64,000 nt of DNA from a virus (IMGVR_UViG_3300020411_003161:260-64259), one strand, 5' to 3'. Shown: positions 6,499 through 64,000, numbered from the stretch's first letter. A program made the numbers and translations. Notes: generated by a model not told the origin, from the letters alone.

Positions 6499-6977
6499 TT
6501 TCTATGCTCATGTCCAGCTAATGCAGTAGCTACTTTCTTATCAAATTTTAAAGCTTTTGAATTTTGAACTTCTTCAAATTCTTGCTCATACTCTTTAAGT
6601 ATAGTTTCCCATCTTTTTTCTTCCATCTCTTTAACCCAATCTTGCCATTCCCCCTTACGATGTAAATCAGCCTCAAATTCCATTTGACAAACTCTACATC
6701 TTTGAAATCTATTATAAGTCTGTTGGTCTAAAGTTTTTAAAATAAGTTTTTTACAATCACTACCTTCCCAACCACTACACTTATCAAATCCCTTTGGTGG
6801 AATTTTAGTAATCTGTTTTCTCTCACCATTCTCCATAACAAATTTTCTACCACTTGGTTCTTCCCAAATCTCACCCTCTCTTCTCATATGGATAGTTTTT
6901 GGTGTGTACCCAATTCTCGGAGTTCCTCTACCACCAACACCAGCTACTAATTTTTTAATTTTTTCTATCTTATTCAT
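6495..6977 (-). CDS. Hypothetical protein with Cys cluster (possible Zn finger)
   Basis: 160 aa, C..C..CRVC pattern, overlaps the terminase start by 4 nt. Confidence 0.7.
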   Translation of the reverse strand: MNKIEKIKKLVAGVGGRGTPRIGYTPKTIHMRREGEIWEEPSGRKFVMENGERKQITKIPPKGFDKCSGWEGSDCKKLILKTLDQQTYNRFQRCRVCQMEFEADLHRKGEWQDWVKEMEEKRWETILKEYEQEFEEVQNSKALKFDKKVATALAGHEHRK

Positions 6978-50100: not shown

Positions 50101-53100
50101 GCCCAGCCGTATATGAATAATTTGTTGTGTCTTCTCTTTCTATTTCATTTGTATTATTATCAGAACCAACTATATTTACAGGTGTTTGATCCACACCATC
50201 CAATATTACTATTAATTGAGCAACACCACTATCGCTGGTATCTGTAGTTGAACCTGTGTATTCAGCCTTTACTATCGTACCATCAAATTCCCTCTGTGAA
50301 GTTCCTATCATCGTCACATCCACATCACCAGATGTGTCACTACTACCATTTACACCAGAGGTTAATAAGAAGTCTGTCGATGAACCACTAGCTTTTATTT
50401 GTGTTGAATTTATTAAAAATCCACCTATGACACCAGCACTTGCAGTTATTGCACCACCTTTTAATGCAAATGTACTTGAACTTATTTCTAATTCACCATC
50501 AGAACCACTTATGAATTGTGAACCAACAGCACCTTTATTCCCAAAAACAAATGTCGAACCGCTAAATTCCAATTTAGATCCTGATATCTGTACTCCTGCT
50601 TGGTTTATGTTAAGAGCAGTTAAGTTTGAAGACGAATCATTATTAAGAGCAGTAACACTCAATTCTATACTACCAGTTGTAAGTTCAATCTGACTCAACC
50701 TTTGGTCTTGAGAACCCGTTGTATCGTTTATAGATGATACACTAAGATTAATGCTACCAGTCTCTAACTCTATCTCAGACAATCTTTGATTTTGAGAACC
50801 TGTAGCGGTGTTCAATGAGGATGTTGTAGCTTCTATCGCAGATACACTTAAATTTATACTACCAGTTGTCAACTCAATTTGACTCAACCTTTGGTCTTGT
50901 GAACCTGTCTCTTGATTTATTGAAGCCACACTTAGGTTTATGCTACCAGTCTCCAACTCTATTTGACTCAACCTTTGGTCTTGAGAACCCGTTGTATCGT
51001 TTATAGATGATACACTAAGGTTGATACTACCAGTTTCTAATTCGATTTGTGATAATCTATTATCCTGCGAACCTGTCGTCTGTTTTATCGATTCAACGCT
51101 TAGGTTTATGCTACCAGTGGTTAATTCAATTTGACTCAACCTTTGGTCTTGTGAACCTGTCTCTTGATTTATTGAAGCCACACTAAGATTAATGCTACCA
51201 GTCTCCAATTCGATTTGTGATAATCTATTGTCTTGTGAGGATGTAGTTTGATGTATTGAAGATACATTGAGATTAATACTACCAGTTTCTATTTCAATTT
51301 GACTTAACCTTTGGTCTTGGGAACCAGTTGTTTGTTTTATTGCTTCAACGCTTAATTCTATACTACCAGTTGTCAGTTCAATTTGCGACAACCTATCACT
51401 CTGCGAACCTGTTGTATCGTTTATAGATGATACACTAAGGTTGATACTACCAGTTTCTAATTCAATTTGACTTAACCTTTGGTCTTGGGAACCAGTTGTT
51501 TGTTTTATTGCCTCAACGCTTAGATTTATGCTACCAGTGGTTAATTCTATCTCAGCCAATCTCTGATTCTGTGTGGTTATGGAATCGTTTAATGAACCAG
51601 TTGTTGTGTTCAATGATGCTGTGGCACTTTCAATTGCAGATACACTTAGATTTATACTACCGGTAGTCAATTCTATGTCAGCTAATCTTTGATTTTGTGT
51701 AGCTATAGAAGTATTCAATGAGCCAGTTGTTGTGTTCAATGAGGCAGTGGCACTTTCAATAGCACTAACAGATAAGTTTATACTTCCTGTGGTTAGTTCT
51801 ATATCAGCCAATCTTTGATTCTGTGTAGCTATAGAAGTATTCAATGAACCAGTTGTCGTATTTAAAGAGGCTGTAGCAGTTTCAATAGCACTAACACTAA
51901 GATTAATACTACCAGTTGTCAACTCTATCTCAGCCAATCTTGCATCTTGTGTTGTTATTGAACTTTGTAATGAACCAGTTTCAGTATTCAAAGAAGTTGT
52001 TGTAGACTCAAGAGCACTCACAGACAAATTGATACTTCCAGTAGTTAATTCGATTGAACTTATTCTTGAATCTTGTGAAGTTATTGAATTTTGTAAAGAT
52101 GCTGTTGTAGCATTTAATGAACCAGTAGTTTGACCTACAGAAGCTGTGCTCTCATTTAATGATGATACACTAAGATTGATACTTCCAGTAGTTATTTCAA
52201 TTGCTGATATTCTAGCATTATGAGATCCCGTTGTATTATTTAATGAGGTAATTCCTAAATTTATACTTTGTGTGGTTGTGTTTATTGATGCTAAAGATTT
52301 AGATACATCACCATCTGATATGGCTAATGAACCAGTAATTGTTAGGGTGCTATTATCCCATTTAAATTTATCCTTTAAACTAAATTGTCCACTACTATCC
52401 AAATAAACACCAGTATCCGCTGTACCAAAAGTCCCCGCACCAGTGAACAACTTATTAGACTGCATTTTTATACCACCGATTGAACCAGTATTAGCAACTA
52501 TTCCACCCTGTAAGAAAACATTCTCCCCATACAAACCAAAACCAGCATTAGCAGGATTTGTACCATGTAGTTTTTCTTGACTTAATCCACTTAAATCTCC
52601 AAGTCTTGTTTTTAATTGTATATCATAAATAGCACTTCCAGTTCTTTCTACAACATCAATATAAGGTGTTGTAGAATCATTTGGATTTGCATTTAATCTT
52701 ATAAATCCCGTACCCTCTTTTCCAGTCGATACAATTACTTGTCCAGGTTCATAAGTTGTAGCAATTGAAGCGCTATCACCAAGGGAACTTGTATCATTTG
52801 TTCCAGGAAGTGAACCACTATATCCACGTTTCACATATAACTTACCACCAATATCTGTACCACTTTCTGGATTATTTCTTGACGAACTTTCAACCAACAT
52901 ATATTCTGTTGAGAAACCTGTATCTGTTACTTTCTTTGCAGATATTATTTCATTTGCCACAAATCCACCAATATTTGCAACACTCATAGTTGTAGCAGTA
53001 GAAGCTAATTGTGTAGAACCAGTAATAGTAGTTGAATTACCAACATATAATTGCCCACCAACTGCATTGACTGTTTCTTTTTCAAATACAGTTGTCGATA

Positions 53101-56100
53101 GTGTTCCCCTAATGGTTATGTTTTCAAATTCAGCACTTCCATTACCAGCAGAATCTAATCTAAATCCTTTAACTCCACTTGCAAAATCATTAGTTTCTAT
53201 AATACCACTAGATCTTAAAGTTAGATTTGAACCAACTATCGTTTCACTACCTAATGTCCAACCACCAATAGTTCCACTTGTTGAAGTTAAAACTCCAGCA
53301 CTTGTAACTTTAAATACTGAACTTGCGCCTAATGCAATTCCATCTGTCCCCAAATAAAGTCCCGTATTAGAGTCAGTTAATGTTGCTTTACTGCCAAGTG
53401 TTATTTTTGGAGTAGTAGGATCTAATAAAATATTCGTTGCTGATAGTGTAGAACCTATTGTCCACCCACCTATAGTACCTGATGTTGATTTTAAAACTCC
53501 AGCATTGGTTACACTGAAAGGTGCATCACCAAATGTAGAATCACCTAATTGTATTCCGGTTGAACCCAATTGAATATAATCAGAATCAGTTCCAGAATAG
53601 ATATCCGAAGTTCTTATATTCCAATTAGCAATTGTCCCAGCCTTAGCTGTTAATGAACCAGCATTGGTAACTTGAAATTCATTTTCATCACCAAGAGAAA
53701 TTCCATCTGAACTTATAAAAACTCCATCATTACCATCAGCAGCAAATGTAGCTTTATCTCCTATCTTTATGTTAGCACTAAAAGTACCAGTAGCACCAGT
53801 CAAATCCCCACTAAATACACCTGAAGTGAAATTGACAGCACCAGCAGAAGATATTGTAATTCCACCATTACTTACTGCTGTGCTATAATCAGCATCATTT
53901 CCCCACCACATATTACCTGAAGAATCCACACTCCAAGCATTAGTACCAATCTCTATTGAACCACCAGTAATAGATCCTTTAAAAGTAGCCGCACCATCTG
54001 CTGCTATTTTAAATTGATTAGAACCTAAAAAACCAGCCCCCAATGTTATATGACCTGCGCTTGTAAATGTATCATCAGCCACTTCAGTTCCGATATAAAT
54101 AGCATTACTATCTACAGTCCACCCACCAATACTACCCTCATTAGCAGTTATTTTTCCACTAATGTCAGCTGATGTCAACTTAGCTGCAGATGCTGTAATC
54201 TGTCCCGTTGAACCTGTAATTGAAAGTTGATGTGAATCGGAATGTATTCCTTGACTTTTAATAGTTATTCCACCAATACTACCTTCATCAGCTGTTATTT
54301 TTCCACTAATGTCAGCAGTTGTTAATTTAGCTGCAGAAGCTGTTATTTGTCCAGTTGAACCCGTAATTGAAAGTTGGTGTGAATCAGAATGTATTCCTGC
54401 ATTCTTAATTGTTATTCCACCAATCTGCCCAGTTGTGGCGGTTATATTACCTGATATTTTTGCAGCTGAAGCAGTTATTTGTCCCGTTGAACCTGTAATT
54501 GAAAGTTCATGTGAATCTGAATTTATTCCAGTACTATCAATTGTAATTCCACCAAAAGAACCCTTTGTAGCAGTTATATCACCATCTATCTTAGCTGCTG
54601 AAGCAGTTATTTTACCAGAAGAACTTAATACCAAATTCCCATCAGTACTTACAATCGCAATTGGATTTATTACAAAACCAGCAATAGATGCTGATTTGAA
54701 ACTTGCGAAACCTTTTGAGTCTATACTTGAAGAAGCATTTGTGGCAGTAGAAGCAACTCCCCCAATTAGTGCTGGAGTTCGTATAGCATTTGCAGTTAAA
54801 TCAGCATCAATAGTAACACCACTTCCAATTACTCCAGCACTCGCTTCAATAGTTCCATCTGCTTTGACTTGAAAATTAGAAGAAGATATAAAGTATTCTG
54901 TTCCAGTTGCAGCGCCACTTATGTAAAAATTAGGAGTTACAGGCTCATCAGGTGGTGAGAAAAAAGCATTATCACTAACACCAAAACTACCAATTGAAGC
55001 TGATACAAATCTGGCGAATCCCTTAGAATCTATAGATGATGAAGAGTTTTGTTCGGTTGATGCAACTCCACCGATTGTAGCAGGTGTTCTTAAACTATTT
55101 ACTGTCAATCCAGCATTAATTGTTGCATTAGCACCAATTACTAATGTATCATTATTTGGATCTAAATGAAAATCAGATGAACTTATCTCAATATTATTAT
55201 TAGCACCACTTATGAATTGAGTTGTAGTATTACCAACAAAAAATTTATCGGTTCTTATATCCAACTCAGATGGTATACTTCTAAATTTTAAAAATGAATT
55301 AGCGCTTCCATATAACTCTAATCCAACTCCTTTATAATCATCATCGGTAGCAGTTGGTAAAACAGAACCACTAAATAACATAACCCCCGTATTACCATTT
55401 GAAAAACCAGTATATTCTTTTGATTTTAAATAAGCACCACCATCTCTAGCAGCCATTTCAAAACCATCACCAACAGCATCACCAGTATATAATGAACCAC
55501 TTATTAAATTATCATTACCCTCAATAAAAAGAGCTGAACCTGTAAATGTTTGTTCTGATGAAGTTATTTCTATATCAGTATTTAATAAACTTCCCGTATA
55601 ATATTGTGCTATATCCCCATTTGGATTTTTAATTCTTAATCTAAAAACAACAGGAGTATTTCTTCTAAAATCATTTGGAACAGGAACTTTATATTGATGG
55701 GACAATATATTCAAACCAGCAGAATCATCTACTGGAACCTCATAATTACTTCCACTTATTTCATATGTAGATAATGTAGTATATTCTGTAGCTTGAGTAT
55801 TTGATTCTTTATATGAAAGTTCAGCAAATCTCGCTTGACCACCATTAGTTTGTAAATGTGAAGCACTAACATTGACATAACTTCTTGATACATGGGTATC
55901 ACCAGTATCAAATTCAATACTCTGATTAATCTCAAAACCACTCTGTAATAAAGTTGGTGTAGGAAAAAGTATTGGAGAAGTGTTTTGGTAATCTTTTCTT
56001 ATTTCATATTCAAAGGTACTTCTTATATTATATGCATCATCAAATTCACCTGGAGTATATTGTGAATCAAGAGAACTAACTATATAAAATTTAGCCATTC

Positions 56101-56416
56101 CATCAGCTATTTCTGCAGAAGTTCTCAATGGGTTTTTCTTTACCCAAACATATCCTATACCCCCACCACTAAGTGCAGTAGTTATTTCCGAATATATTAC
56201 AACACCTTTGGAATCAACAAATTCAAATAATAAATTTGCACCAGATTGTAGTGGTGGTAAATCTTCTGGTGGATTGTATGTTATTATAAATGGATGTTTA
56301 CCATAACCTAAAATATCTGGCAATAAACTTAAAGTAAAATATGTAGTATTATTAATTTCAGTATCAATATAATACCGATATGATTCTAAATCCAAAGTTT
56401 GTGAATATGTTGACAT
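47174..56416 (-). CDS. Giant virion protein (3080 aa), probable central tail fibre/spike
   Basis: G.IGG(W/F).I beta repeats, GSAEFENITIRGTL..TVFEK..VNAVGGQL motif, a long heptad-repeat stalk and the shared C-terminal GNKVDGTKGDWTLQEG domain. Confidence 0.85.
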   Translation of the reverse strand: MSTYSQTLDLESYRYYIDTEINNTTYFTLSLLPDILGYGKHPFIITYNPPEDLPPLQSGANLLFEFVDSKGVVIYSEITTALSGGGIGYVWVKKNPLRTSAEIADGMAKFYIVSSLDSQYTPGEFDDAYNIRSTFEYEIRKDYQNTSPILFPTPTLLQSGFEINQSIEFDTGDTHVSRSYVNVSASHLQTNGGQARFAELSYKESNTQATEYTTLSTYEISGSNYEVPVDDSAGLNILSHQYKVPVPNDFRRNTPVVFRLRIKNPNGDIAQYYTGSLLNTDIEITSSEQTFTGSALFIEGNDNLISGSLYTGDAVGDGFEMAARDGGAYLKSKEYTGFSNGNTGVMLFSGSVLPTATDDDYKGVGLELYGSANSFLKFRSIPSELDIRTDKFFVGNTTTQFISGANNNIEISSSDFHLDPNNDTLVIGANATINAGLTVNSLRTPATIGGVASTEQNSSSSIDSKGFARFVSASIGSFGVSDNAFFSPPDEPVTPNFYISGAATGTEYFISSSNFQVKADGTIEASAGVIGSGVTIDADLTANAIRTPALIGGVASTATNASSSIDSKGFASFKSASIAGFVINPIAIVSTDGNLVLSSSGKITASAAKIDGDITATKGSFGGITIDSTGINSDSHELSITGSTGQITASAAKISGNITATTGQIGGITIKNAGIHSDSHQLSITGSTGQITASAAKLTTADISGKITADEGSIGGITIKSQGIHSDSHQLSITGSTGQITASAAKLTSADISGKITANEGSIGGWTVDSNAIYIGTEVADDTFTSAGHITLGAGFLGSNQFKIAADGAATFKGSITGGSIEIGTNAWSVDSSGNMWWGNDADYSTAVSNGGITISSAGAVNFTSGVFSGDLTGATGTFSANIKIGDKATFAADGNDGVFISSDGISLGDENEFQVTNAGSLTAKAGTIANWNIRTSDIYSGTDSDYIQLGSTGIQLGDSTFGDAPFSVTNAGVLKSTSGTIGGWTIGSTLSATNILLDPTTPKITLGSKATLTDSNTGLYLGTDGIALGASSVFKVTSAGVLTSTSGTIGGWTLGSETIVGSNLTLRSSGIIETNDFASGVKGFRLDSAGNGSAEFENITIRGTLSTTVFEKETVNAVGGQLYVGNSTTITGSTQLASTATTMSVANIGGFVANEIISAKKVTDTGFSTEYMLVESSSRNNPESGTDIGGKLYVKRGYSGSLPGTNDTSSLGDSASIATTYEPGQVIVSTGKEGTGFIRLNANPNDSTTPYIDVVERTGSAIYDIQLKTRLGDLSGLSQEKLHGTNPANAGFGLYGENVFLQGGIVANTGSIGGIKMQSNKLFTGAGTFGTADTGVYLDSSGQFSLKDKFKWDNSTLTITGSLAISDGDVSKSLASINTTTQSINLGITSLNNTTGSHNARISAIEITTGSINLSVSSLNESTASVGQTTGSLNATTASLQNSITSQDSRISSIELTTGSINLSVSALESTTTSLNTETGSLQSSITTQDARLAEIELTTGSINLSVSAIETATASLNTTTGSLNTSIATQNQRLADIELTTGSINLSVSAIESATASLNTTTGSLNTSIATQNQRLADIELTTGSINLSVSAIESATASLNTTTGSLNDSITTQNQRLAEIELTTGSINLSVEAIKQTTGSQDQRLSQIELETGSINLSVSSINDTTGSQSDRLSQIELTTGSIELSVEAIKQTTGSQDQRLSQIEIETGSINLNVSSIHQTTSSQDNRLSQIELETGSINLSVASINQETGSQDQRLSQIELTTGSINLSVESIKQTTGSQDNRLSQIELETGSINLSVSSINDTTGSQDQRLSQIELETGSINLSVASINQETGSQDQRLSQIELTTGSINLSVSAIEATTSSLNTATGSQNQRLSEIELETGSINLSVSSINDTTGSQDQRLSQIELTTGSIELSVTALNNDSSSNLTALNINQAGVQISGSKLEFSGSTFVFGNKGAVGSQFISGSDGELEISSSTFALKGGAITASAGVIGGFLINSTQIKASGSSTDFLLTSGVNGSSDTSGDVDVTMIGTSQREFDGTIVKAEYTGSTTDTSDSGVAQLIVILDGVDQTPVNIVGSDNNTNEIEREDTTNYSYTAGQTVGAKIRFPDQSSGTFAINEMTVRLTLNEVSSPEQNGIVIDSSVPSISLGSGSFGETGIQLEVSKSITKAHIGELTGSHLRYDEGGFDISSSKFYFGSSTGTYISGSNGNLKIQSDKFTLAQNGDVTIEGQVSASSGDIGGINISSNQISAGSFSLTNGGILTAVGADLAGTISASAGNIGGLKLEEGKLSAGAGGGDVFSITGSTGQLTASNALIQGRLTAESINATGSGVIGGFDISGTQINDTGNNLILKSNGQITASAAQLSGDLIANNISADSGSIGGWILGDSAISKSFGAGLTQSIALTSSADNMVGLEFKDNDTSQLRVGANFEFSTLPDTSEPLTNLSFERPGAGASYPIIDNVSSWTIDTPTVRNAADDGVYSLNNPSIGGLGTVSSSYVVGRNDLDYQLISEDYADTPANKSMTNEDRRFQRASDVTPFGDNFLAVSASFNNDIKDGTSALGFSFKTTLTQQSSTSQTLEPGSSITFGGSYLIPDLLYNDYVFQNHFGKTLSGVSITPGVSTSWQNRTIGMTFRIILQLKIGSDVVAQRTAFSYSYEHPTRTFTHEDWNKWHNFSSNYTNNTNSDKTGNVSLVLINELIGGRATTFDQNNSGERYDNAYHGMGLGYNPVTTNQDLLGEFFTPIVLFDNFSVVVGSKPVVEVSPEGINAQLNRGEFFKFTRDGLELATNRSVSFTQVNPKAVLFDVSASNADGINLNPQISFNSSHTSSFSSPNTISLKGQGAFASSSATDTKVGRGGDIIIAAGDGANTGATGITAGVGGDLYLRSGDRGLHSDGGTSGTPGNIYITGSIFSSGSVTIDGKYTIPNTTGTSGDVLKWPSSGTTLEWGAGGSGGSGGTITALNNQTENRLVTIGSTTTELDGEANLTFDGSTLTVTGDIDPGASATHDLGSTTLRWRNVYTTDLQLSNMDREEGNKVDGTKGDWTLQEGKDDLYVINNLTGKKFKISLTPVDED
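50640..52300 (-). repeat. About 16 tandem repeats, mostly 28 or 42 aa (84/126 bp), forming a coiled-coil stalk
   Basis: RL..IE(L/I)(T/E)TGSI(N/E)L(S/N)V counted 16 times; unit lengths are multiples of 7. Confidence 0.9.
54150..55100 (-). repeat. Intragenic repeats: 3x GGITI..GI.SDSH.LSITGSTGQITASAAK and 2x RTPA.IGGVAST..N.SSSIDSKGFA
   Basis: Visible in both protein and DNA. Confidence 0.85.
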
Positions 56417-56438
56417 GTATTAATCCTAAATCTTATTA

Positions 56439-56471
56439 ATAAATATTTAAGAAATAATATATGATATTTAT
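56439..56471. promoter_or_regulatory. Back-to-back divergent ATATTTAT motifs
   Basis: The minus-strand copy (56439-56446) faces the 3080-aa gene and the plus-strand copy (56464-56471) faces the RHH gene. Confidence 0.65.
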
Positions 56472-56501
56472 TTATATGTATAAAATAAGGATAATATCGG
56501 T

Positions 56502-56678
56502 ATGAAAAGAAAATATTCTTTTACAATAGATGAAACGCTAATGGAATGGTTTAGACTTTATGTTAAAGATGAAAGCACTACTATGAGTGCTGTTTTAAAC
56601 CAACATATATTAAGTTTGAAAAGAGGTGGCAATAAACCTAAAAATATATTATACTCTAATAAAATAAATCAAAATTAA
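56502..56678 (+). CDS. Small ribbon-helix-helix (Arc/CopG-like) DNA-binding protein, 58 aa
   Basis: Below the ORF-track cutoff. MKRKYSFTIDETLMEWFRLYVKDESTTMSAVLNQHILSL... has an alternating beta strand followed by two helices. TAAGG RBS and ATATTTAT motif lie upstream on the plus strand, and its stop overlaps the convergent SbcDC stop. Confidence 0.75.
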   Translation: MKRKYSFTIDETLMEWFRLYVKDESTTMSAVLNQHILSLKRGGNKPKNILYSNKINQN

Positions 56679-59600
56679 GTATAAGTTATCTTAGAATAAC
56701 CACTCGTAGTTTTATTAATTGGTAGTAAATAATCCATAAAATCTTTTATAGTGTCTAAGTGTGTTATAATGAAAACAGATTGAAATCTGGTTTTTAAGTA
56801 ATCAAAAGCTCCTTTCATATTTGCTAAGTTTTCCGAATCCAATGTACCGAATCCCTCATCGATTACAAGAAAACTTGGATGTGGTAAATTAGATACATTG
56901 ATTAACCCAACTCTCAATGCGAGTGAAGATACGAACTTCTCCATTCCACTTGATAAATCCAATGCCCATTCATCCTCATCATACTTTATATAAATGTTTA
57001 TGTTCTTATCTTCATTTCTAAGTTTCAATTCAAACCCAACCATCATATGTTGTAATACTGCATTTACCTCATTCTCAATGATTGGTAAAGCATCATTTAT
57101 AATCAATCTAGGTATTCCATCTCGAGCAACAAGATTTAAATACAGAGAATAATCATTTATCTTTTGTTCAATTTCTATAAATTGTTTTATTTCATTTTCT
57201 ATATTCAATTTATTGGTTTCGATAACAGTTATATTTGTTTTTAATCTCTCAACTTTTTTACTCAAATCATCTCTTAGAGATATGTTAGAATCAAGCTCAG
57301 AAACAATCTCTTTTAGATTCTTATTAACTTCTTCGTTATGTTGGATTAAAGCTTTATTCTTATCGTAATTTTTCTTATCCTCATATAGTGAAGAAAGATT
57401 CATTTCATCTTCTGATATGTCTTTTTCTATCTGCTTCAACTTTGCATGATTTTTATAAGCATCACTCTCAACTCTTTTTAAATCCTCAGCAAGTTGTTCA
57501 TATTTTATCTTAATTTGTTCTGAATCACCCAATATAACAAGTTTATTAGAAACTCCCAATTTTGCAAGTTTTATTTTCTCCAACTTAACTTTCTTATCCT
57601 CTATCTCATTCTCCATAGATTTTTTATCTTCAATTTGATGTTTACCATTCTCTAAACAAAATTCGCAGTTTTCATCATATTCATATTTTTCTAAATGAGA
57701 TAACTTTTCTTCAGCCTCTTTTATTGTTGATTGTACTAATAAAATTGCATTAGAAAGTTCTTTTTCCTCTGATTGCATTTCTCTATATGCTTCGAAATCT
57801 TCAGCTATTTTATCTTCATCATAAGTCTTACTATCTTTCAATAATTGATTATATAGAGATCTTAAATCTTCTTTATATTCCAATTCAGTATTTAAAATTT
57901 CATTATTGGTTTCTATGTGAGTTTCCAATTTATTTATTTCTTCTTCAAAATTTGTTTTATCCAAAACAACATCTATATCTTTTAACTTCTTTATAAATCT
58001 TTCTTTTTTCTTACTATTTCTATCAATTATCTTATTAAATTTATTTAATTCTTTTTCCTCTATTTTAAGTGTAGATTGTTGTGCAATCAAATCCTCTTCC
58101 AATTTAGAAATTTGATAAAACAATTCTTTGTCTTTCATTCTTCTATGTAAAGCTTTTTCTTCAGCAACATCCTCTCTTGCTATATCGTATAATTTATCAA
58201 ACAATTCAATATCAAGAAATTGAGACAAAATTTGTTTTCTTTCCGATTGCTTCTTCTCTACAAAATTTTGTCCATTATTTTGTAAAGACATTGAAGTTAA
58301 AATAAAATCATCGAATGTTCCTAATATATTTCGTATCTCTTCATTAGTTCCAGTTCCATATTGTGAATTACTTCTTTGTGCTCCAGATAAATCAATCATT
58401 TCCCCATTCTCTTCCATATAAAATTTAACAGATACAGGGCAAGTCTTTGTAACTATTCCAGTCTTTCTGGCAGTTCTTCTTTTTAATGTACCAACTCTAT
58501 GTATAAAATATGTAACACCATTTACTTCTATAGCCAACTTTATTTCAAATTTCCTAGTTCTTCTATTCAAAACTTCCATAGCCTTATAAGTTCTAGAACA
58601 TGCATCAAATATAGCATAAGAAATAATATCAAATAATGCCGACTTACCACTATGGTTTGGAGCTATGAGTCCAACAATTCCATTTAATTTAGTGAAGTCA
58701 ATCTTATTACCTTTACCATAACTAAACATATTATCAAACTCAATATACTTTAATCTCCACTCTATATTCCGTGGTTTATCCTTCATCATAGAAACAGATG
58801 AATTTGTCTGTTCATTTATTTTATATATTCTATCTATTGTTTCATCATCTATATTAGGATTTTCTTCTTTCAATACCTTTGAAACAAGTTTATTCTGAAC
58901 ATCCAAATCATGTATATCATCTATTGATATTTTATTTTGACCTTGATGTAAGTGGGAATCAATACTTGTTATTTTTTCAGTAACTATTTGTTTTAATTTT
59001 CTATAGTTCTTTCTTAAATCTAATTCAATCAATCTCAATTCTTCTACTGAAGTATCTTTGTATTTTATTTTTATATTACCAAATTTTGGTATAAAAGACA
59101 TCTTACTTTTTATCTTACCATCTTCAACCAATATAGTTTTAAAACCATAATCATTTTCTACCCTGATGAATTCAGATTTTCTTTTTTCCACATCCCAAAG
59201 TAAAAATCCATGTTCTGGTGCCTCAGCAAAGTTCTGTTGAATCAATGAACCACAATATGCAATTGTTTCTCCTTTATTAAGAAATTGTCTTTTATGAATG
59301 TCACCCAATAGAACCATATCATATCCATCAAAATGTGAAACCTTCACATCGTCATCCTGCATCTCCAATCCAGTATCAACTTCAAAAGTACCCACACCAC
59401 CGTGATAAACAGCTATTTTTGTATCCCCCTCTATATCTGATGCTTTAGGTAAATTCTTTACATTTGGTTTACCTTCTTTATTTATATCAAATACTGATAA
59501 GAAACCAAATTTATGTCCACCCAACTCATATACACCACTTTTTTTCCAATAGTGTATATTTGGATTTATTTGTTTTACTAAATCTATTATTGGTGATAAA

Positions 59601-59887
59601 ACATCTTCACGTGATTTATTGTTTAAATTACAATCATGATTTCCAGGAATTATTAATGTGGGTGAGATAGCACTTAACTTTAAAAAGAAATCAGCAACTA
59701 ATCTAACTTCTTCTGGCGATGTATCAAGTTTTCCATGAACAATATCACCACCTATGTAAATTAAATCAGGCTTTACTTCCTTCAATTTTTTATATAATCT
59801 CTTAAACACATCTCGATATTCCACAAACCTATGTAGTTTTCTGATGTGAATATCTGCTAAGTGTGCTATAGTTTTAATTTTATCCAT
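56675..59887 (-). CDS. Fused Mre11/SbcD nuclease-Rad50/SbcC ATPase (T4 gp47+gp46 equivalent)
   Basis: Nuclease motifs DIH, GGD, PGNHD and LGDIH. ATPase motifs APNHSGKS, CEFC zinc hook within the coiled coil, LSSGME signature, IDEGFG and ITH. Confidence 0.93.
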   Translation of the reverse strand: MDKIKTIAHLADIHIRKLHRFVEYRDVFKRLYKKLKEVKPDLIYIGGDIVHGKLDTSPEEVRLVADFFLKLSAISPTLIIPGNHDCNLNNKSREDVLSPIIDLVKQINPNIHYWKKSGVYELGGHKFGFLSVFDINKEGKPNVKNLPKASDIEGDTKIAVYHGGVGTFEVDTGLEMQDDDVKVSHFDGYDMVLLGDIHKRQFLNKGETIAYCGSLIQQNFAEAPEHGFLLWDVEKRKSEFIRVENDYGFKTILVEDGKIKSKMSFIPKFGNIKIKYKDTSVEELRLIELDLRKNYRKLKQIVTEKITSIDSHLHQGQNKISIDDIHDLDVQNKLVSKVLKEENPNIDDETIDRIYKINEQTNSSVSMMKDKPRNIEWRLKYIEFDNMFSYGKGNKIDFTKLNGIVGLIAPNHSGKSALFDIISYAIFDACSRTYKAMEVLNRRTRKFEIKLAIEVNGVTYFIHRVGTLKRRTARKTGIVTKTCPVSVKFYMEENGEMIDLSGAQRSNSQYGTGTNEEIRNILGTFDDFILTSMSLQNNGQNFVEKKQSERKQILSQFLDIELFDKLYDIAREDVAEEKALHRRMKDKELFYQISKLEEDLIAQQSTLKIEEKELNKFNKIIDRNSKKKERFIKKLKDIDVVLDKTNFEEEINKLETHIETNNEILNTELEYKEDLRSLYNQLLKDSKTYDEDKIAEDFEAYREMQSEEKELSNAILLVQSTIKEAEEKLSHLEKYEYDENCEFCLENGKHQIEDKKSMENEIEDKKVKLEKIKLAKLGVSNKLVILGDSEQIKIKYEQLAEDLKRVESDAYKNHAKLKQIEKDISEDEMNLSSLYEDKKNYDKNKALIQHNEEVNKNLKEIVSELDSNISLRDDLSKKVERLKTNITVIETNKLNIENEIKQFIEIEQKINDYSLYLNLVARDGIPRLIINDALPIIENEVNAVLQHMMVGFELKLRNEDKNINIYIKYDEDEWALDLSSGMEKFVSSLALRVGLINVSNLPHPSFLVIDEGFGTLDSENLANMKGAFDYLKTRFQSVFIITHLDTIKDFMDYLLPINKTTSGYSKITYT

Positions 59888-60791
59888 ATAATTTTGCCTG
59901 TATCATATCTGAAAAACTTGATGATATTGTCTTATCAATTAAATTAGTCATATATTCAAATCCCAAATCATTAGGATCTTTATTCTTTGGTAATTTTACT
60001 ACTTTGGAATCTATACCAAAATCTTTAAAAAATTCTGATAGATTATAAGCATCTTTTTTAGCATCTTCATCTAAAGCAATATAAATTGTTTTTACTTTCT
60101 TTTCAAATATTTTTCTTAATAAACTCTTTGGTGGTTTTTTACTCAACATCGGTATTGCATTTGTTCTGATTGAAATAGCATCAAACATACCCTCACATAA
60201 TACAATTGGATAAGACCAAGCAATAAACCAATCAAATGGAACTATATCTCTTGATACATTTGGATTTTTATATTTCATTCCACCCATAAATGACCTACCT
60301 ACGAAATAATTCAATATACCATTATCATCATAGCTAGGAATAATAATCCTATTTTGATAAACACCAGTATCACAAAATCCAATTTTGTACTTTTTAATAT
60401 CAATACCATCCAATCCTCTTTTTTTTAAAAAACTTATTGCATGATTATAAAATAATGATTTTGATTTTTTCCACAATGGTTGGTATTCCATAGGTAAAGA
60501 AACAATAACCTTTGATTCCTTGTCACCCCCTTTGGTTGGAACAAATACAATATCCTTTAGTTCACTAAAATATTTAGTATCAGCGTTTATCTTTTTAAAT
60601 AATGAATATAAAGAATGCCCACCTTGATTACTAACCCAACAATGCCATTTCTGTGATGACATATTGATTTGTAATTTTGGTTTGTAATGACTAACAAAAG
60701 GTGAGAAAAACATATACTCATCCTGTTTTGTTAGTTTCTTACTTCGACTATTCAAAGCCCGTTCTAACAAATGTATTAATTTATTATTCAT
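59880..60791 (-). CDS. DNA primase (DnaG/TOPRIM type)
   Basis: Degenerate Zn domain SPF..H...WHCW, FLKKRG, RIIIP, KYKNP, TOPRIM CEGMFDA and LDEDA, KDPND. Confidence 0.9.
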   Translation of the reverse strand: MNNKLIHLLERALNSRSKKLTKQDEYMFFSPFVSHYKPKLQINMSSQKWHCWVSNQGGHSLYSLFKKINADTKYFSELKDIVFVPTKGGDKESKVIVSLPMEYQPLWKKSKSLFYNHAISFLKKRGLDGIDIKKYKIGFCDTGVYQNRIIIPSYDDNGILNYFVGRSFMGGMKYKNPNVSRDIVPFDWFIAWSYPIVLCEGMFDAISIRTNAIPMLSKKPPKSLLRKIFEKKVKTIYIALDEDAKKDAYNLSEFFKDFGIDSKVVKLPKNKDPNDLGFEYMTNLIDKTISSSFSDMIQAKLYG

Positions 60792-61287
60792 ATAAAGCGC
60801 AAACTAATGCGTCATAACCATCCAAATTCCGTTTATCCCACAAACCTGTTTTTGTTAATTTAATGTATTCTTCTAAATTATACAAGTTATTTATTTCTTC
60901 CTTTACAAAATCCTTTGCAGATACTCCTTGTTTACGAGCTTTGCCAAAAAGATGTTTTCTTGCTGTCATTGGATTAATACCATCTACTATTTCCCCATAG
61001 GCAAACTCTAAACAATATACCAATACAGCATTGAACTTTGCTAACTTTATTATCGTTTGTTGCGATGTTCTACCACGCATAAAACCAGAAAGATTATCTT
61101 CGATATATATTTTTTCAACTCTTTCAAATGGATCGATTTTAGTAATCTCATCCATTGTTAATTGAACTTTATCTCGAATTGTTTTTTCTTTTTCAATGGG
61201 GATAAACCCCATTTTAATAACCTCTTTACCATCTACGAATGCATAACCTACTGTTGTAGTTGATGCATCCAAACCTAATTTTTTCAA
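60784..61287 (-). CDS. RuvC-like Holliday junction resolvase
   Basis: LGLDASTTTVGYA, IYIED, P.TARK and DGYDALV RNase H-fold acidic residues. Confidence 0.82.
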   Translation of the reverse strand: MKKLGLDASTTTVGYAFVDGKEVIKMGFIPIEKEKTIRDKVQLTMDEITKIDPFERVEKIYIEDNLSGFMRGRTSQQTIIKLAKFNAVLVYCLEFAYGEIVDGINPMTARKHLFGKARKQGVSAKDFVKEEINNLYNLEEYIKLTKTGLWDKRNLDGYDALVCALYE

Positions 61288-61290
61288 ATG

Positions 61291-61668
61291 TTACTTCTTT
61301 TTTAGAAATTCCTTTGCCATCTTTTGACCATACTTTTCTGCTTTCTTTTCAAAGTAGTTATCATCGTGAGCGTCACCACCTTTATCAACAGCAATATTCA
61401 TTTCCGTTTCATATCTTTTTTTATATCCCTTCTTTCCATATTTTTTAGCATCAAGAGCATGGTCAATCTCGTGATATACTGTAACTAAAAAATCTTTAAA
61501 ATTGGAAGTTGGTTTAATGTTAATTATATCATCATCTACATTATAATCAGCTTTATTTTTTCCAGTGTTTTTAAATTTTATTTTTGATTTTAATCCAGCT
61601 TGTCTAACTATTTCTGTAGCAATTTGATGAAAATCCACCCTTTCATTTAATATATCCATTAATTTCAT
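61291..61668 (-). CDS. Small zincin-like (HExxH) metallopeptidase-domain protein with capsid-targeting-like N-terminus
   Basis: YHEIDHALD...NYFEKKAE; N-terminus MKLMDILNE; ATATTTAT motif 4 nt upstream of the ATG. Confidence 0.75.
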   Translation of the reverse strand: MKLMDILNERVDFHQIATEIVRQAGLKSKIKFKNTGKNKADYNVDDDIINIKPTSNFKDFLVTVYHEIDHALDAKKYGKKGYKKRYETEMNIAVDKGGDAHDDNYFEKKAEKYGQKMAKEFLKKK

Positions 61669-61672
61669 ACTA

Positions 61673-61680
61673 ATAAATAT
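61673..61680 (-). promoter_or_regulatory. ATATTTAT putative late promoter
   Basis: Fills the 16-nt gap, ending 4 nt upstream of ATG 61668. Confidence 0.6.
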
Positions 61681-61684
61681 ACTA

Positions 61685-62140
61685 TTAAATCGTTATAATA
61701 GTTGTTAAATTACCAAAACCAGCCCCATGTAATCCACCTATTTTTATCTCATAATTTCCAGGTGGAATGTATTGTGTTCTTTCTGTTTTATAAAGTTTCC
61801 ACACATAAGTGAAATCCCTATATCTACCATCGGGCCATGGATCTCTTTTCAATGGTTGTTCATGTACAAGTCTATTTGTTTCAGTATCATAAATCCACAA
61901 CTTAGTATTATTACTTGTTACTCTATATTTTATTTTCACTACAGCGCCTTCACCACCACTCCACTTTTCATGAGTATCTTTCCACGCTATTAGTGGAAAA
62001 TTATTAAATTCATTTTCATCAATTACAAATTCTTCCCTTTTAATTTCTCTCTTTTCTGTATAATTAAGATAGGTAAAAGCTAATGTAACAAAAATTAAAG
62101 TAAGAATTATTTTTTCTAATATTTTAACATCTAATTTCAT
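61685..62140 (-). CDS. Membrane-anchored protein with FlgD-like Ig domain
   Basis: N-terminal hydrophobic helix, then KIKYRV...LWIYD...LV...YVW......IPPGNYEIKI. Confidence 0.65.
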   Translation of the reverse strand: MKLDVKILEKIILTLIFVTLAFTYLNYTEKREIKREEFVIDENEFNNFPLIAWKDTHEKWSGGEGAVVKIKYRVTSNNTKLWIYDTETNRLVHEQPLKRDPWPDGRYRDFTYVWKLYKTERTQYIPPGNYEIKIGGLHGAGFGNLTTIITI

Positions 62141-62170
62141 AATGAAACTTACACAGAAAAACTATGAAAG

Positions 62171-62791
62171 TCAAGTTTTTTTCATTTTTATTTTTAATTG
62201 TGCCAATAGATTATCTATTTGTTTTAATTTAGGATGATTGATATCAGCATCCATAAACTCATCTCTTTTAATTTTTAACTTCCCATATGCTTTCTGTAAA
62301 TCTACTAAAGCAATACCTTTCATTGATTTCCTATAATATAAATGGTGTAATGCTTCATCTTCTGCTTCAGCACCACGAACACCAGCAACTGCAGTTATGT
62401 ATTCTGTTTCATATGGTTCTGAATCTACAACTTCTGTAATCTCTTCCCATACTGCTTGCTCCCACATAGCATCCATATCAAAGTCTATATCTTCTACAGA
62501 TGCAATATCAATACTATCTTGAATTGCTTTTTGTTTACTTTTTTCAGCTCTTTGTACTGCAAATACAGAATCATAATATGTGTCTGATAATGAATCACAT
62601 TCACTTAACCATTGTCCATAGTTTTTCCAATTAGGTCTACCATTATAATTTCTGTATTCTGTATCATCACATTCCTTACCCATGAATGTAGATGTCTTAA
62701 ACTCTGATACACGAGTTGCTTGACTATAACCTAATTGAATATTCAGACAAATAAAAAGTATTGGGATTATATTCGAAATACCAAATCTCAT
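62171..62791 (-). CDS. Secreted/periplasmic hypothetical protein
   Basis: Signal-peptide-like N-terminus (MRFGISNIIPILFICLNIQLGYSQ), TAVAGVRGAE motif; overlaps the upstream pilin by 68 nt. Confidence 0.7.
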   Translation of the reverse strand: MRFGISNIIPILFICLNIQLGYSQATRVSEFKTSTFMGKECDDTEYRNYNGRPNWKNYGQWLSECDSLSDTYYDSVFAVQRAEKSKQKAIQDSIDIASVEDIDFDMDAMWEQAVWEEITEVVDSEPYETEYITAVAGVRGAEAEDEALHHLYYRKSMKGIALVDLQKAYGKLKIKRDEFMDADINHPKLKQIDNLLAQLKIKMKKT

Positions 62792-63128
62792 TATTCATTC
62801 TCCTATGATATAGTTTAGTTCCATCGAATTGCCACTCATTATCTTCATCGGGTATTCCCAATTCATGAGTAACGATTACATTTCTCGTACGACCTAAAAC
62901 AGATAATGGGTGTTCAGGCCAACTTTGTTGTCCTGTTAACTCATATTGTTTCTTTGCATAAACTTCTAACTCTTTCCAAATCTGATATGTAAATTCCTTT
63001 TCATGTTTCAATTCTTCCAATTCAATCCTTTTTTCAAATCTTGGTACAGCCACTGCACTCATAATACCAATAATCAGAATCACTATCATCAACTCAATTA
63101 GAGTGAATCCTTTAAGTGATACTTTCAT
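62724..63128 (-). CDS. Type IV prepilin-like protein
   Basis: KG|FTLIELMIVILIIGIMSAVAVPRF class III signal peptide with E5. Confidence 0.92.
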   Translation of the reverse strand: MKVSLKGFTLIELMIVILIIGIMSAVAVPRFEKRIELEELKHEKEFTYQIWKELEVYAKKQYELTGQQSWPEHPLSVLGRTRNVIVTHELGIPDEDNEWQFDGTKLYHRRMNNEIWYFEYNPNTFYLSEYSIRL

Positions 63129-63571
63129 TAAATCTCCCCAACTACATAATCATTAAGAGATGGACTATCAGGGTCTGTATCTTTTATCACTATCCTTTTT
63201 GTTATAAATCCATATTCGCTTGTATCATCATCCCAGTAATAATTATATGGGTTCTTATTCTGATTGTATGGCAACTTGCCACTAAATAAATTATCTGGTG
63301 TTCTACCATCTTCTAAAGTAATTTCTCTGTATGTGGAATCCATTAAACCATTCTCTGGCAATTGTGGAAAGTGTGGATTACCTCGCATATGGTTTAAATA
63401 ATAATACTGCATAAAAGTATTCTTTATTGTTTCCATATTTGCTAAGTTCACTTGTTTTTGAGTTCGATTCGTTAAACTATTAAAAGTGGGGATCATCGAA
63501 CCAACGAGAATCCCCACTAATGTTATAGTTACGATCAACTCAACCAAAGTAAATCCGGCAGAGTTCTTCAT
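63128..63571 (-). CDS. Type IV prepilin-like protein
   Basis: AG|FTLVELIVTITLVGILVGSMIPTF class III signal peptide. Confidence 0.92.
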   Translation of the reverse strand: MKNSAGFTLVELIVTITLVGILVGSMIPTFNSLTNRTQKQVNLANMETIKNTFMQYYYLNHMRGNPHFPQLPENGLMDSTYREITLEDGRTPDNLFSGKLPYNQNKNPYNYYWDDDTSEYGFITKRIVIKDTDPDSPSLNDYVVGEI

Positions 63572-63580
63572 CGATAACTC

Positions 63581-64000
63581 CTATAGATCAGCTCTAGAAC
63601 CTAAAGTCCCTACATCAGCATTATCGCCTGTTTGTGTACCTTTATCATATGCCCAACCAACTCTAGAGTTGTCATTTCTTTGATGTGTGATTTTGTTAGA
63701 AGTAGTATTATATGTCCACTCACCATCAGAATCAGCATCATCGGTATCAGCACTCCATCCATTTGGTTTTGTATCTAAAGCATCCCATGGATTTGTTGGC
63801 CAACTTCTACGACCATTATCCATAAGTTGTTCTACAGCATATGTTTCTAAACCAGCTTTAATAGAAGATATTACAGCATCTTCTGCAGCTTCCTCAGCCT
63901 TAACAACAGTTGAGGCGTATCTCGGAATAGCGACAGCAGCGAGAATACCTAAAATGATTGTAACCATTATTAACTCAATAAGGGTAAATCCTTTGTTATT
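63581..64000 (-). CDS. Type IV prepilin (major-pilin-like), 5' end beyond the window
   Basis: The frame extends past the ORF-track start to the edge: ...NNKG|FTLIELIMVTIILGILAAVAIPRY. Confidence 0.92.
   Translation of the reverse strand, partial: NNKGFTLIELIMVTIILGILAAVAIPRYASTVVKAEEAAEDAVISSIKAGLETYAVEQLMDNGRRSWPTNPWDALDTKPNGWSADTDDADSDGEWTYNTTSNKITHQRNDNSRVGWAYDKGTQTGDNADVGTLGSRADL

Follow-up and report, generated by a model that had tools for sequence, protein, structure and literature searches.

Why would a tailed phage of the ocean carry a row of genes for type IV pilins, and which machine would assemble the products? The question is raised by positions 61685-64000 of IMGVR_UViG_3300020411_003161:260-64259, a 64,000-nucleotide stretch of viral DNA that was analysed as a whole and is called here the window. 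The window comprises bases 260-64259 of a linear, 64,259-base IMG/VR virus record that is 34% complete, so that position 64000 is the end of the contig. Every long open reading frame (ORF) of the window lies on the minus strand, and translation recovered in place the five genes that a preliminary description of this DNA had assigned to the region: three pilin genes (A, B and C), a gene for an exported protein of 206 amino acids (sec206) and one for a membrane protein of 151 amino acids (TM151). The region makes up the 3' two-thirds of a pilin operon carried by the phage, the first gene of which (X) is seen in related contigs just past the point where the window ends. The explanation that we prefer, with a probability of roughly 0.5 for the whole of it, is that a phage lineage captured part of a pilus operon from its host, that the host machine assembles the phage pilins, and that the altered pilus replaces a phage receptor.

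The likely host belongs to Marinimicrobia (SAR406), a group that ranks with the most abundant uncultured bacteria in the dark and low-oxygen ocean; to our knowledge, very little has been learned about their viruses. The cassette supplies a sequence-based host link for a large, evidently abundant phage lineage and is relevant mainly to marine virus-host biology and to questions of promoter function and partner proteins. It offers testable parts, namely a pair of promoters with a difference in a single key base, and two partner proteins by which the pilins are always accompanied.

Three prepilins of the type IV superfamily

Pilin A (63581-64000, minus strand) has its 5' end cut by the contig end and misses about 4 codons compared with a 144-amino-acid copy in a related viral locus (L002:9557-9991). 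Pilin B (63128-63571, minus strand) follows after a gap of 9 nucleotides, its stop codon overlaps the start of pilin C (62724-63128, minus strand) by 1 nucleotide, and pilin C overlaps sec206 by 68 nucleotides. Each of the three proteins begins with a short basic leader that ends in Gly at -1, has Phe at +1 and Glu at +5, and contains a hydrophobic helix (with a slash at the predicted cleavage site, ...NNKG/FTLIEL in A, MKNSAG/FTLVEL in B and MKVSLKG/FTLIEL in C). The Pfam model N_methyl (PF07963) recognizes A, B and C with 30.8, 30.7 and 29.2 bits, respectively (cut-off 21.2), and so does the NCBIfam model IV_pilin_GFxxxE (TIGR02532) with 31.8, 22.0 and 31.1 bits (cut-off 16.3). Judged by these signatures, A, B and C belong to the type IV pilin/prepilin superfamily defined by the class III signal peptide, and their processing and assembly into a filament are predicted. 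The count of at least three intact class III signal peptides in the preliminary description thus stands for the window, and X, beyond its end, brings the pilin-type genes to four. The related viral loci caught by a motif scan keep Gly at -1, Phe, Tyr or Asn at +1 and Glu at +5, and a few copies fall outside the scan pattern.

Pilin C is a paralog of pilin A that belongs to the phage lineage: the two are 36% identical (E 3e-22) and have in common, with gaps, the SWP..P / EW / H.R motif by which they had been called clear paralogs from the start. A and B resemble each other less closely (28% identity, E 5e-10). Residues 3-61 of pilin A, the alpha-1 helix, match 19 distinct pilin sequences in the PDB, the best being Geobacter PilA-N (E 3.8e-11) and the others including P. 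aeruginosa PilA, Neisseria PilE, MshA and GspG; the likeness to solved type IV pilins is confined to this N-terminal helix. There is no cysteine in A, B or C, and hence nothing corresponding to the disulfide-bonded C-terminal D-region of a classical type IVa major pilin (PilA/PilE). None of the three reaches the cut-off of an NCBIfam PilA equivalog or of any other named pilin equivalog, and the scores with the GspG model TIGR01710 (43.6 bits for A, 35.4 for B and 30.9 for C) are all under its cut-off of 88.85. Pilin B, which is distantly GspG-like over its whole length, aligns with positions 2-103 of the 134 in that profile.

Searching a collection of isolate phages with pilin A yields matches to the N-terminal helix in 6 records and no match to the globular part. 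In sequence databases at large, pilin A has 4362 relatives at E<=0.001, and the best 120 of these are 84-94% identical and come mostly from marine surveys. Furthermore, 20 marine runs from 12 studies contain the stretch in whole or in part.

A recurrent phage-borne cassette

A scan with pilin B found 10 related IMG/VR loci and a scan with X found 44, together 45 different contigs of up to 132 kb. Of the 45, 30 have the complete set, which consists of X, one or more A/C-type pilins, sec206 and TM151. In the remaining 15, the locus reaches less than 3 kb beyond X and stops at the contig end in 13 cases and within the contig in two (L052 and L074), and none of the contigs with at least 3 kb of room past X misses a part of the cassette. 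The commonest type among the 30 complete cassettes (17) consists of X, a C-type pilin, TM151 and sec206; seven, the type to which the window belongs, have X-A-B-C with both partners, five have X-A-A'-C with the partners, and one has X-A-B with the partners. The two partners, sec206 and TM151, are each found in 30 of 30, and pilin B is missing from 22. The constant core is, then, X, one pilin of the A/C family, sec206 and TM151, with A and B as optional parts. Among the phage copies, pilin B is 58-91% identical; pilin C is 70-79% identical in nine related viral loci (eight contigs; the values for L006 and L007 are identical) and is absent from L009 and L012.

The gene ahead of pilin A in the related contigs is X, of 212-229 codons. 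The N-terminus of its product reads KG/NSLAEFAVTTA.MATLA.TAAPKF, with the Gly, the Glu at +5 and a hydrophobic stretch, and with Asn instead of Phe at +1. Against Pfam, NCBIfam and PHROGs, X obtains a weak match at most. An AlphaFold2 model with a predicted local distance difference test (pLDDT) score of 71 has a long N-terminal helix followed by an alpha/beta domain. We call X pilin-like by virtue of its N-terminal motif, its position and its promoter.

The contig of the window ends within pilin A, pilin A resembles a cellular gene, and the related contigs are prone to end near X, all of which would be expected had host chromosome been joined to phage DNA by mis-assembly or had a provirus-host junction been sequenced. 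The preliminary description had itself called for a check of the DNA past 61.7 kb for host chromosome or a chimera and for a check of coverage. In L002 and L003, the cassette lies between conserved non-host genes upstream and a RuvC gene downstream, as in the window, and L004 sits in a 131-kb record rated 70% complete. One gene order, with phage genes on both sides, recurs in independent contigs from many samples. There is no step in GC content at the region, and 30 of 30 bins of 56000-64000 are covered by contigs that come from a separate DNA run of another study. The neighbours of the homologous genes in cellular loci are different, with X, A and B alone common to the phage. No match to Phage_integrase was detected in the five phage records searched here and below, all of them fragments (34, 70, 51, 16 and 18% complete). 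The cassette is phage-borne, neither a chimera nor a host flank, and the probability of an artefact appears negligible. As for the sequence beyond 64000, which was also to be inspected for continued phage genes, the contig itself ends there, and the related contigs show X, then envelope-directed genes and conserved non-host genes.

Of the contigs of at least 20 kb, 7 of 29 end no more than 3 kb downstream of X compared with 1.8 expected (simulation P ~0.002). This excess of breaks suggests either high population diversity, possibly a hypervariable island, or confusion through cross-similarity with host DNA.

Probable origin of the pilins in a Marinimicrobia pilus operon

A scan with pilin A of one genome per prokaryotic species gave 22 loci, and in 21 of these the encoded pilin is 51-76% identical to pilin A over most of its length; the 22nd matches at the N-terminus only. 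The titles of six of the 22 loci name Candidatus Marinimicrobia or Neomarinimicrobiota (a single-cell genome is one of these six), and those of 11 say only 'uncultured bacterium'; the remaining titles are Balneolaceae, Nitrospinaceae (two contigs, both short and of low coverage), Dehalococcoidia, TMED46 and Bacilli. The resemblance to pilins of Marinimicrobia, which the preliminary description offered as a host clue, is thereby borne out, and it extends to a conserved pilus operon. The host is likely to be a member of Marinimicrobia/SAR406 (NCBI phylum Fidelibacterota).

Three of the loci with other titles deserve a remark. L012, a 3.7-kb contig from a metagenome-assembled genome (MAG) titled Dehalococcoidia, encodes a phage-type pilin B (74% identity) and sec206 (49%) and looks like a phage fragment mis-binned into a cellular MAG. 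L026 and L032, from a MAG titled Nitrospinaceae, with coverage of 0.2-0.3 in the contig names, have the cellular Marinimicrobia-type gene order and are probably mis-binned.

The contig of locus L025 (contig 5 of genome G001, 71.5 kb) is plainly cellular. The order of genes there is response regulator, PilD peptidase, PilB, PilR, PilC, four X paralogs, A, B and five minor-pilin-type genes, after which come a fucosidase, an oxidoreductase and a solute symporter. Pfam identifies the machinery of this operon as A24_N_bact (107.5 bits) and Peptidase_A24 (49.2 bits), T2SSE with MshEN, Sigma54_activat with HTH_8 (216 bits) and T2SSF, and by NCBIfam the minor pilins resemble GspH/ComGD. The order X paralogs-A-B-five minor pilins is found in nine loci that cover the stretch (L013-L020 and L025), named Neomarinimicrobiota among them, and L029 has PilD-PilB-PilR-PilC-A.

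The phage genes match this operon part by part. Phage X is closest to the last host X of L025 (43-47% identity). Phage A is 55-62% identical to A of L025 and up to 76% identical to A of other loci. Phage B is 28-34% identical to B of L025 and 31-41% to other host B genes, and keeps its position after A. The cellular matches of pilin C are to host pilin A only (28-39% identity, and 34-40% against L025). The mature N-terminus of pilin A, FTLIELIMVTIILGILAAVAIPRY, is letter-identical to the host copies; by segment, phage-host identity is 0.87, 0.75, 0.56 and 0.43, compared with 0.92, 0.78, 0.55 and 0.45 among the hosts. In the pilin A tree, the phage copies are placed among the cellular ones. The tree is poorly resolved: good support is limited to 6 of its 28 inner branches, and phage A comes out as a single clade in 16% of the bootstrap trees. 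For the number and direction of transfers, we rely on synteny and not on this tree. From the X-A-B order that is common to both and from the presence of the cellular genes in a full syntenic operon, we infer that the phage captured one contiguous piece.

Among 201 sampled genomes of the phylum to which the single-cell genome belongs, 8 have a pilin A match at E<=1e-25, so this type of pilus marks a subgroup rather than the whole phylum. Two loci (G176:C65:107-3368 and G192:C1:19345-23200) contain five or six tandem pilin A paralogs that are 42-65% identical to phage A, which suggests rapid diversification of pilin A in the host lineage.

A host-type promoter motif with a changed base

In the sigma-54 consensus (TGGCAC-N5-TTGC), a GG at -24 lies at a fixed distance from a GC at -12. 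A sequence of the form TGGYAY-N5-TTGY precedes each host X gene (or A where X is unseen), and 28 of 29 copies read TGG(C/T)A(C/T)-N5-TTGC, which is the classic layout of a sigma-54 promoter. The motif is also found 40-80 nucleotides upstream of X in 36 of the 43 viral contigs that could be assessed (e.g. L002:8831-8845, a position beyond the window), and in 35 of these 36 copies it reads TGGTA(C/T)-N5-TTGT, that is, with T in place of C at -12. The 64-kb window contains one match, within a gene, compared with 1.27 expected by chance; therefore, the motif is not a general phage promoter. In the 200 nucleotides upstream of the motif, GTAAC/GTTAC boxes are enriched about 6-fold, in the phage (11.7 versus 1.9 per kb) as in the host (8.9 versus 1.4). 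In L002, a strong terminator-like hairpin separates the preceding gene from the promoter region. The regulatory region was probably taken by the phage together with X.

Sigma-54 (Sigma54_DBD) is encoded in all five host-type genomes, and the activator lies inside the host pilus operon. No true sigma-54 activator was detected in the phage records searched. Two phage matches to Sigma54_activat (PF00158) were rejected: the protein is a 402-amino-acid MoxR/CobS-like AAA+ ATPase next to a 703-amino-acid VWA/CobT-like protein and is no pilin regulator. According to the available portion of a review (PMC5095919), the GC at -12 is important for sigma-54 promoters, and the loss of tight binding at the -12 fork junction accompanies bypass of the activator. 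The fixed change at -12 may thus alter how tightly transcription depends on an activator.

Partner proteins

The sec206 gene (62171-62791, minus strand) encodes a 206-amino-acid exported protein with a signal-peptide-like N-terminal segment, a Cys-containing middle part that is known only from phages, and a C-terminal domain in common with the host lineage. It matches no family in Pfam, PHROGs or NCBIfam. Residues 98-203 are 50-52% identical to ORFs for exported proteins of about 150 amino acids in four of the five host-type genomes, and the block TAVAGVRGAEAEDEAL..LYYR is almost invariant in 18 phage and 2 host sequences; this small exported family of phages and Marinimicrobia-type genomes has no model in Pfam, NCBIfam or PHROGs. 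In G001, the homologue (L036:8618-9067, contig 5) is the last gene of an operon that consists, by names read from the translations, of a secretin, a CHASE2-type cyclase, an FG-GAP repeat protein, a 910-amino-acid protein and the sec206 homologue; this operon lies about 19 kb from the pilus operon on one contig. Thus, sec206 appears to be partly host-derived, a detail that adds to the earlier description of it as a signal-peptide protein.

The last 68 nucleotides of pilin C (62724-62791) are also coding in another frame, where they give the start of sec206 with its signal-peptide-like segment. In L002, L004, L006, L007 and L008, the two genes overlap by about 62-71 nucleotides; in L009, which is devoid of pilin C, the overlap is between pilin B and sec206 and is down to about 7-22 nucleotides.

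The TM151 gene (61685-62140, minus strand) encodes a bitopic membrane protein of 151 amino acids with an N-terminal transmembrane (TM) helix and a predicted beta-sandwich that would face the periplasm. The AlphaFold2 model (pLDDT 78) has the helix at 5-26 and a 7-strand beta-sandwich at 50-150. Foldseek finds no match in the PDB at E<=0.001: the best E-value is 1.3e-3, the TM-scores normalized by the query (TMq) are at most 0.48, and the top matches are immunoglobulin (Ig)/FnIII-type sandwiches; the Ig-like structure neighbours in the Atlas have TM-scores of 0.46-0.60. The membrane anchor claimed for this protein is supported, and the Ig-like label is plausible but generic. At E<=1e-5, TM151 has 177 homologues, all of 149-156 amino acids, with 60-91% identity among the 120 listed, and it has no match in the five host-type genomes. 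As far as known, TM151 appears to be restricted to this phage lineage. The prediction of a complex between TM151 (residues 40-151) and sec206 (95-206) scored 0.01 and gave no verdict.

Dependence on the host, selection and RNA-library matches

In the five phage records, there is no match to Peptidase_A24, T2SSF or Secretin and none above the cut-off to T2SSE; a weak 15.6-bit T2SSE match in G007 is the MoxR/CobS-like AAA+ gene. For the record of the window, this agrees with the earlier remark that a prepilin peptidase, an assembly ATPase and a secretin are missing. The matching cellular genomes do have the machinery, including secretins in four of the five host-type genomes. The pilins, therefore, must depend on the machine of the host.

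The median pairwise ratio of nonsynonymous to synonymous substitution rates (dN/dS) among the phage copies is 0.14 for A (10 copies), 0.20 for B, 0.21 for C, 0.22 for X and 0.32 for both sec206 and TM151, values that point to purifying selection on all genes of the cassette and hence to functional products. Contigs from metatranscriptome libraries of two studies match pilin A over 203 nucleotides with 0 differences, pilin B over 196 nucleotides with 1 difference, and the B/C junction over 218 nucleotides with 1 difference. These RNA-library contigs match the pilin genes and nothing of 56000-62900; the uncovered part says nothing on the level of expression.

Possible functions: receptor replacement and its alternatives

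The following sequence of events would account for these observations. A marine tailed phage lineage would have captured from its host a contiguous piece of the pilus operon comprising the last X with its sigma-54-type promoter and boxes, A and B; a duplication of pilin A would have given rise to pilin C; and two envelope proteins, the partly host-derived sec206 and TM151, would have been joined on. In the infected cell, the operon would be transcribed from the promoter ahead of X, the prepilins would insert in the inner membrane and be cleaved by the host prepilin peptidase, and the host PilB/PilC would polymerize them, through the host secretin, so that the pilus becomes wholly or partly phage-specified. 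The pay-off may be receptor replacement, with pilus-binding phages, both the progeny of this phage and its competitors, no longer adsorbing productively to the infected cell. Assembly of the phage pilins by the host machine is quite probable; that exclusion is the main pay-off is a more tentative proposition, with odds falling a little short of even.

Several observations weigh against this scheme. Processing, pilus assembly, sigma-54 dependence and the pay-off are all inferred steps, and the exclusion scenario presumes that pili matter for adsorption of this phage. The host assignment is based on the titles of MAGs and single-cell genomes and on gene transfer, as distinct from evidence of infection, and dismissing the Balneolaceae, Nitrospinaceae and Dehalococcoidia titles as binning or labelling noise is unproven. 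With GT at -12 instead of the canonical GC, the use of sigma-54 is not assured, and 7 of the 43 viral contigs are devoid of the motif; what they have in its place is a TAG variant, a -12 part that differs, or upstream DNA that is unrelated. X is recognized by no pilin model of Pfam or NCBIfam, and its structural model has no significant match in the PDB (best E 2.0). Since all phage records are fragments, machinery genes could sit in their unseen parts. The RNA-library contigs fit transcription at sea and are no proof of it. The phage pilin A is no more divergent from the host alleles than those are from each other, which fits the provision of a spare part equally well. Finally, the commonest cassette (17 of 30) has X and a C-type pilin and neither A nor B; therefore, the core function can do without the host-like A and B.

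The last two points bear on an alternative that fits the data almost as well as exclusion, namely, that working phage pilins sustain or raise pilus functions as host expression declines, with a physiological pay-off like that of auxiliary metabolic genes. Particle attachment, twitching and DNA uptake as a source of nucleotides are the candidate functions, and the host machinery would be used just as under receptor replacement. The closeness of phage A to the host alleles and the identity of the assembly helix, the retention of the host-type promoter with its upstream boxes, and purifying selection on the genes are all as such a booster would have them. However, the majority of complete cassettes retain only the more diverged X and C-type pilin, the phage-only partners TM151 and sec206 are constant although a simple refill would not need them, and the -12 base differs from that of the host in 35 of 36 copies; on balance, we regard a booster as unlikely. 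A different emphasis on the same core is that the cassette is a self-contained module for pilus conversion, in which X, the C-type pilin, TM151 and sec206, together with the promoter with T at -12, build a phage-specified filament independently of the host PilR signal. TM151 and sec206, the latter related to a protein from a secretin operon, would connect a particular secretin with the assembly platform of the host, and the filament would be an organ of the infected cell, for holding particles or neighbour cells, for DNA uptake or for opening the outer membrane. This possibility appears rather doubtful; if true, it would show for the first time that a lytic phage can re-program a nanomachine of its host by means of a regulatory switch of its own.

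Two further scenarios were considered. The pilins could form a short periplasmic filament in the style of type II secretion which, along with TM151 and sec206, engages the host secretin for the export of a phage product or for late gating or breach of the outer membrane. In phage and host alike, the alignment of pilin B with GspG takes in most of that profile, the host minor pilins are GspH/ComGD-like, the host sec206 homologue closes a secretin-led operon, and in related contigs the cassette adjoins genes for an outer-membrane-barrel-like protein, a lipoprotein and membrane proteins. Nevertheless, every GspG score is far under the family cut-off, B is missing from 22 of the 30 complete cassettes, TM151 has no link to secretin-binding domains by Foldseek or in the Atlas, and no exported cargo was identified, which makes a pseudopilus improbable. 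Jamming of the host machine is, by our estimate, a little less probable still. Here, the phage pilins or TM151 and sec206 would act as dominant-negative subunits that stall assembly or retraction, so that the infected cell loses its pili. Phage shutdown of type IV pili is indeed known, with Tip acting on PilB and PfsE on PilC (from the accessible part of PMC12426801), and truncated PilA-like proteins of Pseudomonas phages are proposed to act in this manner (accessible part of PMC12952977). In the present case, all copies are full-length, with globular parts conserved under purifying selection, and the two to four different pilins that are kept are more than a plug needs.

Relation to known systems

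Capture of a host pilus piece followed by receptor replacement has precedents, as well as differences from them. The available text of Sztanko et al. (Cell Rep 2026, PMC12952977) describes a prophage FimU (P-FimU) of P. aeruginosa F10-like phages that becomes part of the pilus tip and keeps out phages that bind there; it also reports that PilA-like genes occur in prophages of Xylella and in non-temperate phages of four groups. As in those mimics, the genes described here lie in a phage genome and are homologous to pilus structural genes of the host lineage. What is described there for P-FimU and P-PilA is likewise a phage homologue of a host type IV pilus part that keeps the features for assembly and relies on the host machinery, with replacement and a block of adsorption shown for P-FimU and otherwise proposed. 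Unlike those single genes, the present system is an operon of two to four pilin-type genes with two constant non-pilin partners; it has a putative sigma-54 promoter of the host type, a likely host among uncultured Marinimicrobia and no integrase in the records, and is known from sequence alone. The comparison does not extend to the PilA-like groups of Table S3 in that article, with which this family may overlap.

The haloarchaeal provirus SNJ2 is a second parallel: in the available portion of Xiang et al. (Cell Rep 2025, PMC12426801), its PilA1 and PilA2 hijack the host machinery, dominate the surface of the cell and favour both biofilm formation and motility, and the SNJ2 pili serve a second virus as a receptor. 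Common to both cases are tandem virus pilins from host chromosomes that the host secretion machinery assembles into dominant filaments (assembly being predicted for the phage), and related proviruses are described there as carrying similar genes. SNJ2 differs in being an integrated archaeal pleolipovirus; the present case has class III signal peptides of the bacterial kind and additional partner proteins, in a large tailed phage. Tip of phage D3112, which targets PilB, and PfsE of Pf phages, which targets PilC, resemble the proposed system in that a phage interferes with the pilus receptor, with superinfection exclusion as the result, and differ in being small inhibitors unrelated to pilins rather than structural subunits (same source, as far as available).

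The closest counterpart is the Marinimicrobia operon itself (L025, and L013, L017 and L020 of Neomarinimicrobiota), with the same X-A-B order, identical A helices and the TGG-N9-TTG promoter with GTAAC boxes before X. In contrast to it, the phage is devoid of PilD, PilB, PilR, PilC and the five minor pilins, has one X against two to four, adds C, sec206 with its extra Cys-containing part and TM151, and has GT instead of GC at -12. In the literature on Marinimicrobia phage pilins and viral pilins, excluding supplementary tables, no description of this cassette was found, and the words pilin and pili are absent from the accessible portion of the single-cell study that first reported viruses of Marinimicrobia (PMC4611503). 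The cassette would extend virus-encoded pilus parts from single genes in Pseudomonas prophages and haloarchaeal proviruses to a multi-gene operon that brought host regulation with it, in a marine phage that shows no sign of lysogeny (no integrase in five partial records).

Neighbouring genes

Upstream of X in L002, L003, L004 and other contigs, there are more envelope-directed genes. In L002, this run ahead of the pilin operon (L002:5225-8711) includes genes for a 96-amino-acid membrane protein, a 432-amino-acid protein with a signal peptide and an aromatic last residue, a 190-amino-acid lipoprotein-like protein, a 214-amino-acid membrane protein with a coiled-coil tail, a 124-amino-acid exported protein that is thioredoxin-like at 18.4 bits, under the cut-off, and an 89-amino-acid membrane protein. 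The named Atlas clusters nearest to the 432-amino-acid protein are outer-membrane barrels (autotransporter, Phage_OMP and OmpG, with a cyanophage OMP family among them; scores of 0.93-0.94, which are leads only), and it has no homologue in the five host-type genomes. The 214-amino-acid protein was considered as an MshEN N-domain of PilB and rejected (BLASTP E 2.6, nothing in Pfam). This run may be a lysis/spanin-type module or part of the pilus story.

On the other side of the cassette, the window continues with a 125-amino-acid protein (61291-61668) that contains an HExxH motif (HEIDH) and has a weak match to the zincin-like MPTase-PolyVal (21.4 bits, cut-off 27.5); its counterpart in L002 is longer, 186 amino acids, and four extra genes separate it from the cassette. 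Then come, all on the minus strand, a RuvC-like resolvase (60784-61287, PHROGs E 2e-8) and a primase (59880-60791, E 7e-31), which are indeed the phage genes they had been taken for, and a fused single-chain SbcD-SbcC nuclease of 1070 amino acids (56675-59887, E 5e-34). In a related 94-kb viral contig, a gene for the VWA/CobT-like protein of 703 amino acids and one for the MoxR/CobS-like AAA+ protein of 402 amino acids (L010:5507-9242, labels by eye) are situated downstream of the cassette, at a distance of about 1-4 kb. Searches of the window gave no Rfam family in 55000-64000 and no terminator in 59500-64000, and scans for sigma-70-type promoters gave matches not above chance.

Far from the cassette, the minus strand of the window encodes a portal protein (3157-4914, PHROGs E 1e-73), a large terminase (4921-6498, E 4e-48) and a tRNA nucleotidyltransferase (6974-8560, E 1e-66). 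The nearest terminases among isolate phages are those of Microcystis phage Mel-JY01 (54%) and Flavobacterium phage immuto (53.5%); at 53.5-54% identity these are too distant, and a host inference from them was dropped. An ORF of 3080 codons at 47174-56416, presumably a fibre, contains long runs of near-identical repeats of about 28 residues (…LSQIELETGSINLSVSSIN.TTGSQDQR…) and a Gly-rich C-terminal part.

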